DNA of 64,000 nt. Origin: Octopus vulgaris (Eukaryota). The translations under genes were made by a program, and so were the position numbers. Of this stretch, positions 5,886-59,729 are shown piece after piece. How positions within the stretch are numbered: the first letter of the stretch is position 1; the number at the start of each line of letters is the position of its first letter. The notes below the pieces were generated by a model that saw only the letters and a program-made list of their open reading frames with translations, made no database searches and was not told where the DNA came from. The stretch is taken from assembly GCA_951406725.2 (NCBI GenBank), contig OX597822.1, forward strand, positions 82,336,001-82,400,000, given 5' to 3'.

Positions 5886-6095
5886 AATGTGACTGCGTGT
5901 GTACCGTTGGTGATTTTTTTTCCTCCGTCTTCCCTTCTCTGGATCTTTCCTTTTCCTATTTTTCTGACGAAGAGCTCTGCTCGAAACATTAAACCCTCCT
6001 TCTTCCCTTCCTTCCTGAGCTGCCAATAATGCTATATTTGTTCCACGTCCTCGCGTTGTTGTGTTTTCTCTTTGTGTTTTCATGTTTGGATTAAC
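5882..6095 (+). mobile_element. Short TA-embedded element with minimal hammerhead (5960-5994)
   Basis: TTT CTGACGA aGAGC tct GCTC GAAA CA TT AAA; (TA)n on both sides; homologues at 9017-9215, 49247-49457 and ~55575-55745. Confidence 0.7.
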
Positions 6096-31794: not shown

Positions 31795-32126
31795 CATTAT
31801 TTATATTACTTACATTATTTACATTTGACGATATTTGTCCTCATCTTTTTTTTGTTGTTAACACGTTTCGGCTGATATACCTTCCAGCCTTCATCAGGTG
31901 TCCTGGGGAAATTTCGAACCTGGGTTCTCATTCCTAAGGTATTTTTCGATGTATTTTTCAATACCTCAGGAATGAAAACCCAGGTTCAAAATTTCCCCAA
32001 GACACCTGATGAAGGCTGGAGGGTATATCAGCCGAAACATTATGTTAACAACAAACAGGATGAGGACAAATATCCCTCAAATGTAAAATAATGTACATAA
32101 TTCCTCATCTCTTAAATATAGAACTG
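31795..32126. mobile_element. Penelope-like inverted pseudo-LTR insertion with a hammerhead in each arm and an 11-bp TSD
   Basis: Arms ~31811-31943 and 31960-32095; catcacatgat duplicated at 31784-31794 and 32127-32137. Confidence 0.8.
32001..32046 (+). ncRNA. Minimal type I hammerhead ribozyme motif (mirror copy on minus at 31858-31902)
   Basis: GACAC CTGATGA aGGCTG gagggtatat CAGCC GAAA CA TT ATGTT; the mirror keeps GAAACG. Confidence 0.7.
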
Positions 32127-38188: not shown

Positions 38189-39487
38189 CGAGGCGTGTCC
38201 ATTAAAGATTTTCCCCTAACCCACTTCTGGTTATTGCAGGAAACTGAACTTTTACCAGCATAATCATACATGTCTCTACATGTCACATTGTAAGTTACAG
38301 CTTTCCACTAGTATTCGTTTGTCTTTTACAGCTACTGAAGTGGACTAAGGTGTTATAGTGGAGGCAGTTGAATGTAAATCAGTGATCAGGTTCTTATACT
38401 TGAAAGGGTGTACATCAAAAGAGACTTTTGATGTGATGAAAGAAGTTTATGGTGACGATGCATCATCATACAACATAGTCAAACATTGGCATCACCAGTT
38501 CAAATGTGGTCGGACACTGGTGGAAATGGCTCCTATTCCTGGACAAAACATTCCGTCCTTGATGACGACACAATCCAAAAAGTGGAAGCTGCCATTTCAG
38601 AGGATCGCCGCATAACTATTTGGTAACTAGCCCAAGAAGTAAAGATAAATGTAGGGTCCATGGAAAAATCATTCACGACCATTTGCACATCTGGAAGTTG
38701 TCCATACAATGGATTCCCCAGATTCTTGCACTTTTTCAGAAGCAGGAACGAATCAGATGCTCCCAGTCTATTTTGGCAATGTGCCAAGAAAACAAGGAGG
38801 ACTTTTTTAGCAGACTTATCTCACAGGATGAAACATGGGTCCATCACTTTGATTCTGAGACTAAAGTCCAGTCAAAGCAATGGAAGCATGATAATTCACC
38901 ACTTTGAAAGAAGGCTTGTGTCCAATCCTCAGCAGGCATGGTGATGCTCACAGTCTTTTGGGACCAGCATGGAGCAGTGATGATGGATTTTCTGGCAAAG
39001 GGCCCCACAGTTAATGGGGCATATTATACTTCTCTGCTGCAGAAATTGCGAGACACTATCAAAGCGGATAGTCGTGGCATGCTGACCAAAGGAGTTATCC
39101 TCCTCCTAAACAATGCCCCGGTTCACAATGCACATATTGTCCAGATGAAAGCACACTCCTGTGGCCATGAAATCTTTCCTCTCAATAAAATCCCTTACTC
39201 TTGTGACCTCTTACCGTTTGACTTCCACCTCTTTCCAACCATAAAGTCTTTTTTGAAGAGGAAGCACTTTATAGCTGATGATGAACTTATTTCTGAGGTA
39301 AAATCTTGGCTCCAGACACAATTTATTGACTTCCACAGACGAGGTTTTCACAGCTGCATAAAGCGATGGGAGAGGTGTGTCACCATTGGTGGTGGCCATG
39401 GATAGAAGGACTAATAACTATGCCAAGTTTCATTTATCCCAATCTTTGGGGAGTGGTTCCAGGGAAATCTTTAATGAACGTCCCTCG
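38189..39487 (+). mobile_element. Full-length defective mariner transposon (~1.3 kb)
   Basis: TIRs cgaggcgtgtccattaaagatt / aatctttaatgaacgtccctcg; left TA; inserted into a family C minisatellite unit (gctttata|...|atacatggcac). Confidence 0.92.
38358..39405 (+). pseudogene. Mariner DD34D transposase, frameshifted and with stops
   Basis: ORF pieces 38358-38615, 38620-38907 and 38938-39405 give WIPQIL, QDETWVHHFDSETK, VMLTVFWD, NNAPVH, PYSCDLLPFDFHLF and RWERCV. Confidence 0.9.
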
Positions 39488-40215: not shown

Positions 40216-40984
40216 TCATTATGTTGAGTGTTGTTGTTGATGTTGCTATGGTGTTTGTGGTTGTTGTTGCTGTTGTTGTTGTTGTTAAGGATCAAACAAT
40301 TTAGAATGTGGAAAACATACAAAAACAGCCCCTCCTCCCGTACTCTACCATAACCACCACCACAACCACCACAAACACCATCGCCAAAAAAGTAAATATA
40401 TAAATAAACTTACACCCACATTTTATTAGTTCTCCAGAGATTAAAGTCTGGCCATCAATCTTGCATAATCATCAGCATCAACATCACCACCATCATCATC
40501 ATCATTGGCATTATCATCACTATCATCATCATCATCCTTATCATCACCTTCACTAACACCATTAACATCATCATCATCTTTTCTACATTTCTATGCTTGA
40601 AGAGAATTTGATGACACTTCTTCTTCTTCAGTTAATATTGTACAGTTGGATGCCCTCACACCCTCAATGCCAACCCTTATTTGTTAAGTAAATTATTTCA
40701 TTCGACATCTTTATATTCTCAATCATTCAGCTGCCAAACTTTTTCCAGATTTTTATGCAATATAAACATCTTCACCATTGCACAAATAATGCCAGTGTGA
40801 AGATTTGTGGAAATAAACACATTCGCAAACGCACACACACACACATCCACATGCACAAGGGAGCTAGGTCTGGATTAGATGCTGTGTGTTGCATCAGTTC
40901 GATTTCCTCAAATTCTTGGAGTTTATTCTGGGTTGATGAATGGAATGAGAAAATTACTATTTTTAAATCTCACAACATGAGGAG

Positions 40985-41390
40985 TGGCAGGAGTGGCTGT
41001 GTGGTAAGTAGCTTGCTTACCAACCACATGATTCCAGGTTCAGTCCCACTGCGTGGCATCTTGGGCAAGTGCCTTCTACTATAGCCTCGGGCCGACCAAA
41101 CCCTTGTGAGTGGATTTGGTAAGCAGAAACTGAAAGAAGCCCGTCGTATATATGTATATATATATATGTGTATTTATGTTTGTGTGTCTGTGTTTGTCCC
41201 CCTAGCATTGCTTGGCAACCGATTCTGGTGTGTTTACGTCGCCGTCACTTAGTGGTTCGGCAAAAGAGACCAATAGAATAAGTACTGGGCTTACAAAGAA
41301 TAAGTCCCGGAGTCGATTTGTTCGACTAAAGGTGGTACTCCAGCATGGCTGCAGTCAAATGACTGAAACAAGTAAAAGAGTAAAAGAGTA
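40985..41390 (+). mobile_element. SINE family B, full length
   Basis: tRNA-like head, ttgggcaagt core, internal TA/TG tract, gtaaaagagtaaaagagta tail. Confidence 0.9.
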
Positions 41391-41411
41391 TGAGATATTC
41401 AGCAACAGTAC

Positions 41412-41855
41412 TTTGTAGTAAAGATTGTTTGCCAACATAACATGGCAGTCCTGGTTTAGGACAAATGTTGCTGTAATTTAACCCTAGGAGATATCATCTC
41501 CAGCTGACTATACGACATGATCTGTGTCCTTACATTTTTTTAATAATTTTCTAATTTATAAATCAGTGACTAGTTGTCACTGTGAAAACTATATATTTCG
41601 AACGGGAATTTGGTAGCGCCACCTCTAGCTGAACAATTATTCTGTGCTGATGAAGGGGAAATAACCCAGAAATCACGATACACAGATATTGTTTTGAGCT
41701 GAGTGGGGGTGTTAGATTCCCTTGTTCAAAAACATAAGGACACAGATCGTGTTGTATAGCCAGCTGGAGACAATGTCTCCTGGGGATAAATTACAGCAAC
41801 ATTCGTCCTAAACCAGGACTGCCATGTTATGTTGGCAAACAATCTTTACTACGAA
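41412..41855 (+). mobile_element. Element with ~130-bp inverted arms enclosing a hammerhead
   Basis: 41412-~41540 is the reverse complement of ~41725-41855. Confidence 0.8.
41641..41686 (+). ncRNA. Type I hammerhead ribozyme motif
   Basis: TCTGTG CTGATGA aGGG gaaataa CCC a GAAA TCACGA TA CACAGA; stem I extendable by aacaat/attgtt. Confidence 0.7.
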
Positions 41856-42400
41856 TGGAATGAGGTTTTGTGTTATCTTGCTGTGGATGATCTTGGTTTC
41901 AGTTAAACAATACAGGGTATTTTTGCTGCACAATGGCAAAGACCCTCTCCAGTGGTTCAGCATACAAGTTGGCATCAATGGGTCAACTGTCTGAAAGAAA
42001 CCCGACATGAATTAACCCCTCGTAATTGCACCAGATGCTGATCATCACCTTGTGTTCAAAACACCCATGCTTGGTGACAGGTTCCACAATGTGGCCCTTG
42101 CTTAACCACTGCTTATGCATGTTAGGATTACAGAAAAATATCTCCTTCGGATTTTTACTACTTCTGATCCATGTCTCACGTCCTGCACTCATGATGCTTC
42201 ATCAACCAAGAAGAAGCTTCAGTGAAGGAGTTCTTCACCTTCAAGGACCATAACTGGTCTTCATGTGGGATCAAAGACCTGCAAGAAAGGTTGCTTCAGA
42301 CAGTGCAACATGATGGCCTCTACTATGAATGCTAGACTGCTTTTGTTGTAAATTGATGAATAAAGCAAATAAGTTACCAAAATATTGCAAAACTTTTCAC
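41856..42400 (-). pseudogene. Degenerate mariner transposase remnant, second family
   Basis: Minus strand: KQWLSKG, EHKVMISIWCNYEGLIH, KYPVL and QQDNTKPH. Confidence 0.7.
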
Positions 42401-55529: not shown

Positions 55530-57189
55530 CCACACATTATGCATACATGATACATATATATATATATATTAATGTAACTACACATGTCCCGTTGACGATT
55601 TCTTTTCTTTCTTTGGACTTTTCCCTTTCTCCTTTCTCTGAGCATCAAATTTATACATTTCTTGTGCATGTCCGCACATTCATTTTTGTCTGTTTTTTTC
55701 TTTTTTTTTTTCGTTCATTTGAATTGTTTGCTTGTTATGAGTGACTATTATGTGTGTGTGTGTGTGTAACTTTGGTAGAATTGTGAAAGTATATGATAGT
55801 AAATGATATCATGTAATGTCTATTTGGATATTTGATATGGCTCTCTGCACCTTGATTTCAAATTCCACCAGGGCTGACTTTGTATGTTCATCGTTTTGAG
55901 ATCAAGAAGTAATAAAAGACCATAAGAATATCAGACAAGATGTTTTACAATGTCTGCGTCTGTTCTGTTTTTGTCTATTCTCACTTCAAATTCTCTCGCT
56001 TTAATGGTGACCCATCAATAGTGATAACATTGCAAAACATTGGCATCAAGTCTATTGTAGTTAAAATAAAAAGAAAGAAATGACCGCACAGGAAACCCCA
56101 GAGAGGTCAGAAAACTAATATCACATTCATGAGAACCCTGTGCATCTAGAACAAGGATGTGCCCTTGGGTAGGCAAGGTAGACAGTGCCTACCTCGAATA
56201 AAATAGATCAATAGTAACATTTTCCTTTTAAGCCAAAATAAGCATCTAATTTAATAAAATTATGAGGGTTAGTCTGTTTGCTATGCATAAAATGCAAAAT
56301 ATTTTACTTTTTTGTAGATTAGGCACAATTCGCCCGTCTTTCAATCTCAGTATTAAAGCTATGCACAGTACTGCTGTAGTACACATGCTGTGTACATTCC
56401 TACAACAACGTTTTCTTTACGCATTATAAAGGCAGAAGTATATATGCCTCCAACTCAGTTTGCAGCCTGAAAGACGACCCTAGTTTCCAGCTCAGAATTT
56501 CTGGAACCACTGCTGACACTGGCTTACAGTTCTTGTCCGATCCACATATACTACAATAATATCCCTCATACTTTTCGTTGCCTTGTTGCCCTTATTGAGC
56601 TCATAAAGCAAAATATACCAAATATGCTCCTTTGGTATGTAGCTTTGAAAAAATAACTGTTAAAATCGAACTACTCTTCAAAATAGCCCTAGGAATAAGG
56701 ACACAGTAAAATTACTACCTGCTTTCATAGCAAGTTGATGCAGGTAGTTTATCCTATCCCCCTCCAACTTTTAGGTCACGCAATTGAAAAAATAATTATT
56801 TATGAGATGACCCAATATATATATGTGTGTGTGTGTACGCACAGACATACACATACATAAACACACATATATATAGCCACACAAAGATCAAAGCATTCAA
56901 TTAGCATTTTCATCTGCAGCCAGCGTATATTTATTATGGAATGTCTTGATTAGGATTTTGGACTACACAGGATATGGCTCCAGCCTCCCATATTTACCAT
57001 TCTAATGATAACATGGAATTCACTGAAGCGCACATAGCTTCTATAATGAAGAAGCTTGAAGAACTTTCTCAGAAACACGTTAAGCCACTGCGATGGTGTC
57101 TACGAATCTTTTGCACATTTGATTGTTTAATTTTGATTTTGATTTCTAAGCACATTAATTACCAATCTGTAATATTAATTATGTTTATC

Positions 57190-58173: not shown

Positions 58174-58348
58174 TAAATATTAGGGAATAAATCCAAATTT
58201 ACAGGGAAAAAAATCAGATTTAGGATTAAATCCAATTTTATAGTAAAATATTATAAAATATTATTAGAGACAAAACCACTATTTTGCAAAACAAACAAGG
58301 AAAGACTTAATCAATACATAAAATTTTAATAAATAGTCAAAAAAACCG

Positions 58349-58391
58349 CCACTACAATTGTTTCTTGTCTTGATCGACAATCTTCAGGTGG
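58349..58391 (-). ncRNA. Identical hammerhead motif on the minus strand (left arm of the palindrome)
   Basis: Exact reverse complement of 58438-58480. Confidence 0.85.
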
Positions 58392-58437
58392 ACTTCCAAT
58401 AAGTCAGTTTCAAATTTGAAACTGACTTATTGGAAGT

Positions 58438-58480
58438 CCACCTGAAGATTGTCGATCAAGACAAGAAACAATTGTAGTGG
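58438..58480 (+). ncRNA. Intact minimal type I hammerhead ribozyme motif
   Basis: CCAC CTGAAGA TTGTC gatcaa GACAA GAAA CAATTG TA GTGG; predicted cleavage after GUA at 58476. Confidence 0.85.
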
Positions 58481-59729
58481 CGGTTTTTTTGACTATTTAT
58501 TAAAATTTTATGTATTGATTAAGTCTTTCCTTGTTTGTTTTGCAAAATAGTGGTTTTGTCTCTAATAATATTTTATATATATATACATACATAGAGAGAA
58601 TATAAAGAAAGTCAGAAGGTATGATTTATTTCACCAGTTGATCTCCATAGGATAACAGCTGTTCCATAGCCAACACTATGCAAAAATAATTTAGTTTAAT
58701 GTATAATAAATTATTTTACATGTCTGCCCTAGTGTGTATGCTATAAATTGCATAGTATAAATCAATGTAGATATAGAAGGCTAGCTCATCAGATCAACAG
58801 GATATCACATCAATTTTTCAGCTCCATTATTCACAATAACTATTTTATCTATAACTTTAATACACTGGACATACAATTCATACAAACACTTGTGTTACTT
58901 TTGGTGAACAAATAGTTTCTCTAACTCAAACCTTTCAAATGGATTATTGCAGCAAACGTATTTAAAAAATGTTAAAAGAGATACTCTGGAGTTATAAGTT
59001 TGAATTTTCTGAGGGTCTATGGCTATCTTTTTTTTATTTTAATTTTCTTTTTAACATGGCTGTGTGGTATGAAACTTCCTTCCCAACCACATGGCTTTGA
59101 ATTCAATCCCATTGTGTGACACCTTGGGCAAGTGTCTTCTCCTATAGCCTCAGGCCGACCAAAACCTTGTGAGTGGATTTGGTAGATGGAAACTGAAAGA
59201 AGCCTATTGTGACTGGGAAGCAAACTTCTTACCATACAGCCATGCTTGCACCCACAGGGGCTACATAACTCTTGGTTTCATACTATATACTTTGGATTTC
59301 TGATTTTTAAATGTTTGTTCAGATTTGGAATGGATTCTGTGAAATGGTCATAGAAGAGGCAATAGCCATTTTCTCTAAAGTATGTCAGAAAAGAAAACAG
59401 ATAATTTTTTCTAAGCTAAGGGGAAAATATTCTTAGTAGAAAGGCAATAACTCAAAAACCAGGCCGCAAAATTATGTCACCTGGAATGATAAATGATTTA
59501 AAAGTTTGTAAGATCAGAATGAAGAAAAGACATGTGGACAGATTGATGGACTGATCGACGGACAGAGAAGAGGGGAAGAGAGATAAGAGGGGAAAAGATA
59601 AAGAAGAATAGAAAGAGAAAGGGAATGAAGGAGTACACAGAGGTCAGACAGAAATGAGAGACAGGTATAGAGGGAGTGGCTTAGAGCAGTACCTAAGGAT
59701 GTATTACCTTTCATGTATAATATGCCAGT

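Follow-up and report, generated by a model that had tools for sequence, protein, structure and literature searches.

Insertions of Penelope-like elements are described as 5′-truncated, often with an inverted 5′-truncated copy at the 5′-end and an extension of 30–40 bp on one side (PMC8557442), and those of rotifers as carrying target-site duplications of 8–10 bp (PMC3846280). A purified Penelope-like enzyme of the anole nicks and extends both strands in vitro; it starts at two internal sites of its RNA, the spacing of which equals the tail, and hammerhead cleavage is not needed (PMC11167929). The other systems close to the locus reported here are the non-LTR retrozymes of animals, with units of 350–390 bp in mussel and 330/350 bp in axolotl (PMC7229834). 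In the available text of the sources, Penelope-like elements have been proposed to move animal retrozymes on the grounds that the two co-occur and are alike in sequence, and a review states that such repeats show no motif indicating their mover (PMC7761336). Within a 64,000-nucleotide stretch of the Octopus vulgaris genome (contig OX597822.1, positions 82,336,001–82,400,000; hereafter the window, to which all coordinates refer), a locus was analyzed that we interpret, with a probability of about 0.8, as an old insertion that is decaying neutrally and was placed by a Penelope-like enzyme, its cargo being a non-coding tandem unit of 354 bp with a hammerhead.

The insertion is flanked by an exact 12-bp target-site duplication, the left copy at 40938–40949 and the right copy at 41853–41864 (both + strand). 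This 12-mer is the longest exact repeat between 40500–41420 and the right junction, it occurs only twice in the window, and the chance of a 12-bp duplication is approximately 4e-6 for a 10 × 10 choice of ends. On the minus strand, the part of a mariner transposase remnant that precedes the insertion lies at 41853–42147, where residues 155–253 of protein P0011 align at 42147–41851 (E = 2e-20) and the Pfam family Transposase_1 matches (E = 7e-7), and the part that follows it lies at 40859–40937, where residues 255–279 of P0011 align at 40933–40859 with 48% identity (E = 0.016). Proteins P0002 and P0014 agree at this left piece (E = 0.023 and 0.55, respectively), which is reached by three of the 10 proteins tried. 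Judged by these alignments, the two flanks are a single mariner transposase remnant, colinear across the insertion site. A comparison of this continuity with a distant mariner within the window was not significant (2000 of 2000 controls reached the score); the two short target pieces gave no match in the PDB, and the target had no relative in metagenome contigs. The target remnant is itself internally inverted (40859–42329), with residues 155–279 of P0011 on the minus strand and residues 277–342 on the plus strand at 42138–42329.

A first-pass annotation of the window had described a foldback at 41412–41855 with inverted arms of 130 bp. Such arms are present as two 128-nt segments, 41412–41539 and 41728–41855, which are 91% complementary and lie 188 nt apart, and 41412–41855 folds with z = −27.6, none of 100 shuffled sequences being equally stable. 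The boundaries were misplaced: the left arm runs on through 41391–41415 and then, past an inserted repeat, through 40950–40981, and the two arms are unequal. The element is larger than 41412–41855, its left arm being split by a later SINE-like insertion and ending at 40950. The inserted repeat (40982–41389, + strand) is 408 bp long, is flanked by a 5-bp duplication (40977–40981 and 41390–41394) and has 13 other alignments of at least 60 bp in the window, which cover 40987–41387; we take it to be a putative SINE, the usual reading of such a repeat rather than the outcome of a library comparison. Of the 128 arm positions, 12 differ, 11 of them by transitions, and seven of the 12 break pairing in a plus-strand RNA. 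These differences and the splitting of one arm by the SINE are ordinary decay. Without the SINE, the original insertion comprises 490 bp, in which an inverted copy of 177 bp meets a direct copy of 309 bp head to head near 41540–41543. The direct copy (41544–41852, + strand) represents 309 of the 354 bp of the unit, has a G+C content of 39% and shows no long reading frame in six-frame translation, and the inner part of the inverted copy (41416–41539, − strand), which mirrors 41728–41851, is a 5′-truncated copy of the 3′ part of the unit. The 177 bp of the inverted arm equal half of the 354-bp unit, which may be chance, the inner end being uncertain by approximately 4 bp.

The extent of the unit was established with public reads. 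Twenty of the 24 public runs listed contain all or part of the sequence, and six organism labels among them reach a word share of at least 0.43; two low-share rows labelled insect metagenome were left aside. Raw RNA runs (X23 and X24) and DNA contig sets (X1 and X9; 7608 and 5629 contigs aligned) were aligned to the 361 bases at 41540–41900, and the results below refer to the best 40 of 119 letter rows, the best 15 of 79 joints and the best 24 of 694 loose ends. Family read depth starts at 41544 and ends at 41848–41852; in all four runs, it climbs approximately tenfold toward 41850 and drops sharply after 41851, and loose ends cluster at 41848–41852. This is the pattern of 5′-truncated retro-copies with a common 3′-end. 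Set against the depth of the single-copy flank (69), summed depth gives bounds of ~900 to 28,000 copies at the 3′-end and of 80 to 2,500 copies at the hammerhead, both loose bounds rather than measurements. A head-to-tail joint from 41850 to 41544 is carried by 74 reads with 36 different starts in X23, by 46 reads with 28 starts in X24 and by one contig of X1, and a spacer preceding 41544 is carried by 19 contigs of X9 as loose ends; therefore, the family is a head-to-tail unit. These junction reads are compatible with circles and multimers alike. An array of two whole hammerhead units was not seen, the reads being too short and no listed contig spanning the stretch, and no second copy of the 354-bp unit occurs in the 64-kb window. 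The right flank of the locus has zero coverage in X23, X24 and X9, which bear the same species label, and their species may lack the locus. A search of metagenome contigs with the arm motif gave 0 matches; one viral contig matching a 19-nt degenerate arm pattern was taken as chance.

The left arm contains the sequence that connects one unit to the next. Its segment 41390–41415 (− strand), which is missing from the right arm, is the first half of the spacer: 41391–41415 is the reverse complement of the loose-end consensus found behind 41850/41852 in both DNA and RNA runs, with 0 mismatches and no equal among 100 shuffles. Its outer end, 40950–40981 (− strand), comprises the second half of the 47-bp spacer together with 7 nt from the start of the next unit; 40975–40957, read on the minus strand, equals without mismatch the last 19 nt of the X9 loose-end consensus before 41544, is the only match in the window to those 19 nt at three or fewer mismatches, and precedes the opening bases of the unit. 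Summing the pieces present in the window yields 27 + 20 = 47 bp for the spacer and 307 + 47 = 354 bp for the unit. The inverted copy alone thus carries 52 extra bp at its outer end, which cross the head-to-tail junction of the 354-bp unit. The segment 40945–40956 matches the unit start (41544–41555) at 11 of 12 nt, five of which fall inside the 12-bp duplication. Near the unit start, a TATA-like hexamer, a 7-bp hairpin (z = −4.2) and an initiator-like pentamer occur at 41557–41584; these motifs loosely resemble the pseudo-LTR promoter described in rotifers (PMC3846280), their spacing being short here.

The four features of a Penelope-type insertion that were examined are all found at this locus, namely 5′ truncation, a variable inverted copy, a one-sided extension and a target-site duplication, and the proposal of the first-pass annotation that a Penelope-type terminal unit (pseudo-LTR) is accompanied upstream by its own inverted 3′ part is borne out by the window anatomy. 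The likeness extends to published endonuclease-bearing Penelope-like insertions, which share the 5′ truncation, the head-to-head inverted copy, the extension at one end, the duplication and a hammerhead in the terminal unit. In contrast to those described, the present copy has no reading frame, and its extension enters the next unit rather than an ORF; furthermore, the extension is 52 bp rather than the published 30–40 bp (PMC8557442) and the duplication is 12 bp rather than the 8–10 bp of the rotifer cases (PMC3846280), both of which count against the assignment. The unit resembles non-LTR retrozymes in being non-coding, in its length of 354 bp (reported range approximately 150–400 bp), in its G+C content below 45% and in carrying a type I hammerhead, and it resembles animal retrozymes in particular in its 6-bp stem I, its 2-bp helix III, the palindromic loop of the family and the head-to-tail junction in both DNA and RNA. 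Its membership among the retrozymes is likely on these sequence characters. Animal retrozymes are described, in the available parts of the sources, as tandems and monomers, whereas the present copy is dispersed, inverted and flanked by a duplication (PMC7229834; bioRxiv 10.64898/2026.07.22.740005).

We propose that a Penelope-like endonuclease would have nicked both strands of the mariner remnant 12 bp apart, and that the two resulting 3′-ends would have served as primers for reverse transcription from separate internal sites of the 354-nt unit RNA, one at 41850–41852 and the other 7–9 nt inside the following unit, with microhomology over a few bases. The enzyme would have acted in trans on the unit RNA, and the two cDNAs would have stopped at different points before being joined. 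Since the unit junction is traversed by one copy and the cut site, without a break, by the other, the template would have been either a re-ligated circle or a multimer that had not been cut. The ribozyme sits in the loop because the inverted copy stopped before reaching the hammerhead; its position would thus be a by-product of unequal truncation. Among the best 15 of 79 joints, all eight opposite-strand joints differ from one another, each being carried by one contig of single-copy depth (71–83; flank, 69). The hammerhead lies in the loop in four of the seven that come from X1, one of which may be the present locus, and in these four, the direct copy begins upstream of the hammerhead and the inverted one ends downstream of it; the ribozyme-in-loop shape recurs because the direct and inverted copies are truncated unequally. 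The mobilizing element itself was sought in 150 open frames of the window, of which 146 came from a list of 158 candidates and four were added; none of them matches a reverse transcriptase or GIY-YIG family in Pfam. With no long frame in the unit and no such Pfam match in these 150 frames, the unit is not an autonomous Penelope-like element.

The type I hammerhead motif lies at 41641–41686 (+ strand), with a predicted cut after 41680. Its core is complete, consisting of CUGAUGA at 41647–41653, GAAA at 41669–41672 and UA at 41679–41680; stem I comprises 6 bp (41641–41646/41681–41686) and helix III comprises 2 bp. A descriptor scan finds one such motif in the window, compared with a mean of 0.05 in 100 Markov-randomized windows, five of which contained one. 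The motif had been described in the first-pass annotation as well formed, with a near-palindromic helix III, but it is not fully so. Helix II comprises 3 bp and has no Watson–Crick pair next to G12 (10.1–11.1), position 41668 being A, and Rfam is silent, giving no hammerhead match at the gathering score or at E values up to 10 (three matches at E 7–8 are chance). In the family, the letter at 41668 is G in 30–31% of DNA depth and is never C among the best 40 of 119 letter rows, and the unpaired helix II base looks common to the whole family. The axolotl hammerhead HHR_Amex2 has a mismatch at the same place (PMC7229834). At 41675, G accounts for 60% (X1) and 84% (X9) of the DNA depth of the family and makes loop III a perfect palindrome; with this letter, the self-duplex of the loop III 8-mer has an energy of −10.1 kcal/mol, compared with −0.5 kcal/mol with the letter of the window, and the palindrome for dimer folding is broken in the present copy. 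Hammerheads of animals with a short helix III are described as cutting poorly as monomers and better as dimers (PMC4209133; PMC6765202), and the axolotl retrozyme hammerhead with a helix II base mismatch is described as cutting 22% in 1 h as a monomer (PMC7229834). By analogy with the latter, the present copy may have low cleavage activity. A core that is not conserved among copies had been named beforehand as a finding that would speak against the proposal; as far as visible, the core is conserved, since both X1 and X9 retain the 5′ core in their loose-end consensuses and the two core positions that appear among the best 40 of 119 letter rows change in less than 1% of DNA depth.

These two positions behave differently in RNA, where core-breaking letters reach 48–58% of reads at 41650 (A6 to C) and 35–38% at 41680 (A17 to G), compared with less than 1% of DNA depth. 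This excess of dead cores could reflect a few highly expressed diverged loci or the survival of uncut transcripts. A-to-G or T-to-C changes occur at 54 and 47 places in the two RNA runs and at 10 and 9 places in the two DNA sets, compared with 34 and 35 places in RNA and 26 and 25 in DNA for C-to-T or G-to-A changes. This excess of editing-type changes (Fisher p = 0.0006 to 0.004) suggests, but does not prove, that double-stranded RNA of the family undergoes A-to-I editing: the DNA and the RNA come from different individuals, and other types of RNA-only change indicate that the reads are dominated by a few diverged loci. Self-folding repeats and a Penelope element of a lizard are known to be edited in this way (PMC5625713), and foldbacks of this kind are a plausible source of the double-stranded RNA that is edited in transcripts of this animal.

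The first-pass annotation proposed that the hairpin functions as a device: a hammerhead that remains free to fold would open the loop and yield a long double-stranded RNA with a defined cut. The intact core positions and cut triplet speak for this proposal, as do the 22% cleavage of the mismatched axolotl hammerhead (PMC7229834) and the editing-like excess, by which hairpins of the family are transcribed somewhere. The middle between the arms, which had been called unique, is part of the repeat unit and is predicted to fold not as an open loop but as a rod, an extended stem I with the hammerhead at its tip (41600–41727, + strand); 41590–41727 folds with z = −5.1 (0 of 200 shuffles). In the model, 40 further pairs join both sides of the cut site, an alternative rod buries the core (8.2 kcal/mol) and the active fold is predicted at approximately 2e-6. 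With its core buried in this way and its palindrome broken, the ribozyme is not predicted to be free, and a cut would merely nick a rod held together by the 40 pairs, which leaves the double-stranded RNA with a defined cut unsupported. Folding energy was rejected as proof of decay, since family variants also misfold in the model. No pile-up of RNA ends occurs at the cut site, or at any other place, in X23 or X24, which are fragmented cDNA libraries with no strand bias and ill-suited to this question, and no loose end falls at 41679–41682 among the best 24 of 694. DNA depth rises approximately fourfold across 41670–41695, as many copies starting at the cut site would produce, but clipping in a variable region can explain the step as well. 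The 12 differences between the arms (seven unpaired in the plus-strand RNA), the SINE that splits one arm and the absence of flank reads from both RNA runs, whose species may lack the locus, also speak against a device, which we hold to be very improbable; A-to-I editing rather than self-cleavage is the likely fate of the hairpin in a host transcript, and the locus itself looks like dead genomic debris.

Two rival origins were also weighed. The locus had been called MITE-like, and it resembles MITEs, which are non-autonomous DNA transposons, in being a short, non-coding foldback with many copies (PMC8969392). A true MITE with a captured hammerhead is nevertheless scarcely credible: in contrast to the fixed equal terminal repeats and constant short duplication of MITEs (PMC8969392), the arms differ in length by 52 bp, the present duplication is 12 bp, the eight opposite-strand joints (best 15 of 79) are all different, family depth has the 3′ bias of retro-copies, and the sequence of the arms comes from inside a head-to-tail unit. 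The other rival regards the unit as the pseudo-LTR of an autonomous Penelope-like element, with the head-to-tail junction representing a partial tandem and no self-standing retrozyme family. Retrozymes and pseudo-LTRs are reported to be homologous in Xenopus (bioRxiv 10.64898/2026.07.22.740005), an extra base after A9, which is present here, is described as typical of Penelope hammerheads (PMC4209133), and no full multimer was seen in the reads or contigs; beyond the 3′-end, however, both the window and the main loose-end consensus continue with the spacer and, after it, the beginning of the same unit, without an open frame, and the 6-bp stem I and 2-bp helix III have the canonical sizes of the retrozyme type (PMC4209133). 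We regard this rival as distinctly improbable and prefer a Penelope-type insertion of a retrozyme-like unit.

Within the preferred Penelope-type origin, a more specific possibility is that a Penelope-like enzyme reverse-transcribed a circular retrozyme RNA and that the insertion is the record of this event. In that case, the inverted copy would start 7–9 nt into the unit, and the direct copy would begin 52 nt upstream of that point, cross the intact hammerhead site and end at unit position 1, the start of the other cDNA; both copies together would amount to one 354-nt turn plus 7–9 nt. One further X1 joint also starts at 41544. We consider this circular template unlikely; if it were to hold family-wide, the start sites and the circular template could be read from the insertion ends, which would provide direct genomic proof of how animal retrozymes are mobilized.

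No description of this family, or of an inverted animal retrozyme copy flanked by a duplication, was found in the open literature, and the family may be listed in Repbase, Dfam or subscription papers; the available parts of bioRxiv 10.64898/2026.07.22.740005, the review PMC7761336 and the octopus repeat annotation PMC13282606 contain neither. The locus joins a retrozyme-sized unit to a whole Penelope integration footprint in a readable target, which supports the view that Penelope-like elements mobilize such repeats, and the family has enough members for a test of this view by counting ends. The surrounding window is rich in microsatellites, SINE-like repeats and mariner remnants, further examples of the last being located at 38349–39405 and 56495–56659 (Pfam HTH_48 and Transposase_1). 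Four other structures of interest occur in it. A 99% perfect palindrome of unrelated sequence at 58248–58582 contains two hammerhead cores head to head (58387, − strand; 58442, + strand) and looks like a young Penelope-type inversion, and an older head-to-head foldback with 84% arms at 31805–32101 belongs to another unrelated family and contains minimal hammerhead cores at 31897 (− strand) and 32006 (+ strand). The head-to-head hammerhead foldback is commonplace in this window because two unrelated families share the shape within 64 kb. A decayed foldback with 72% arms lies at 987–1314, in which the descriptor scan found no hammerhead core, and a lone minimal hammerhead core with a 4-bp helix II lies in a pyrimidine-rich repeat at 5964–5986.
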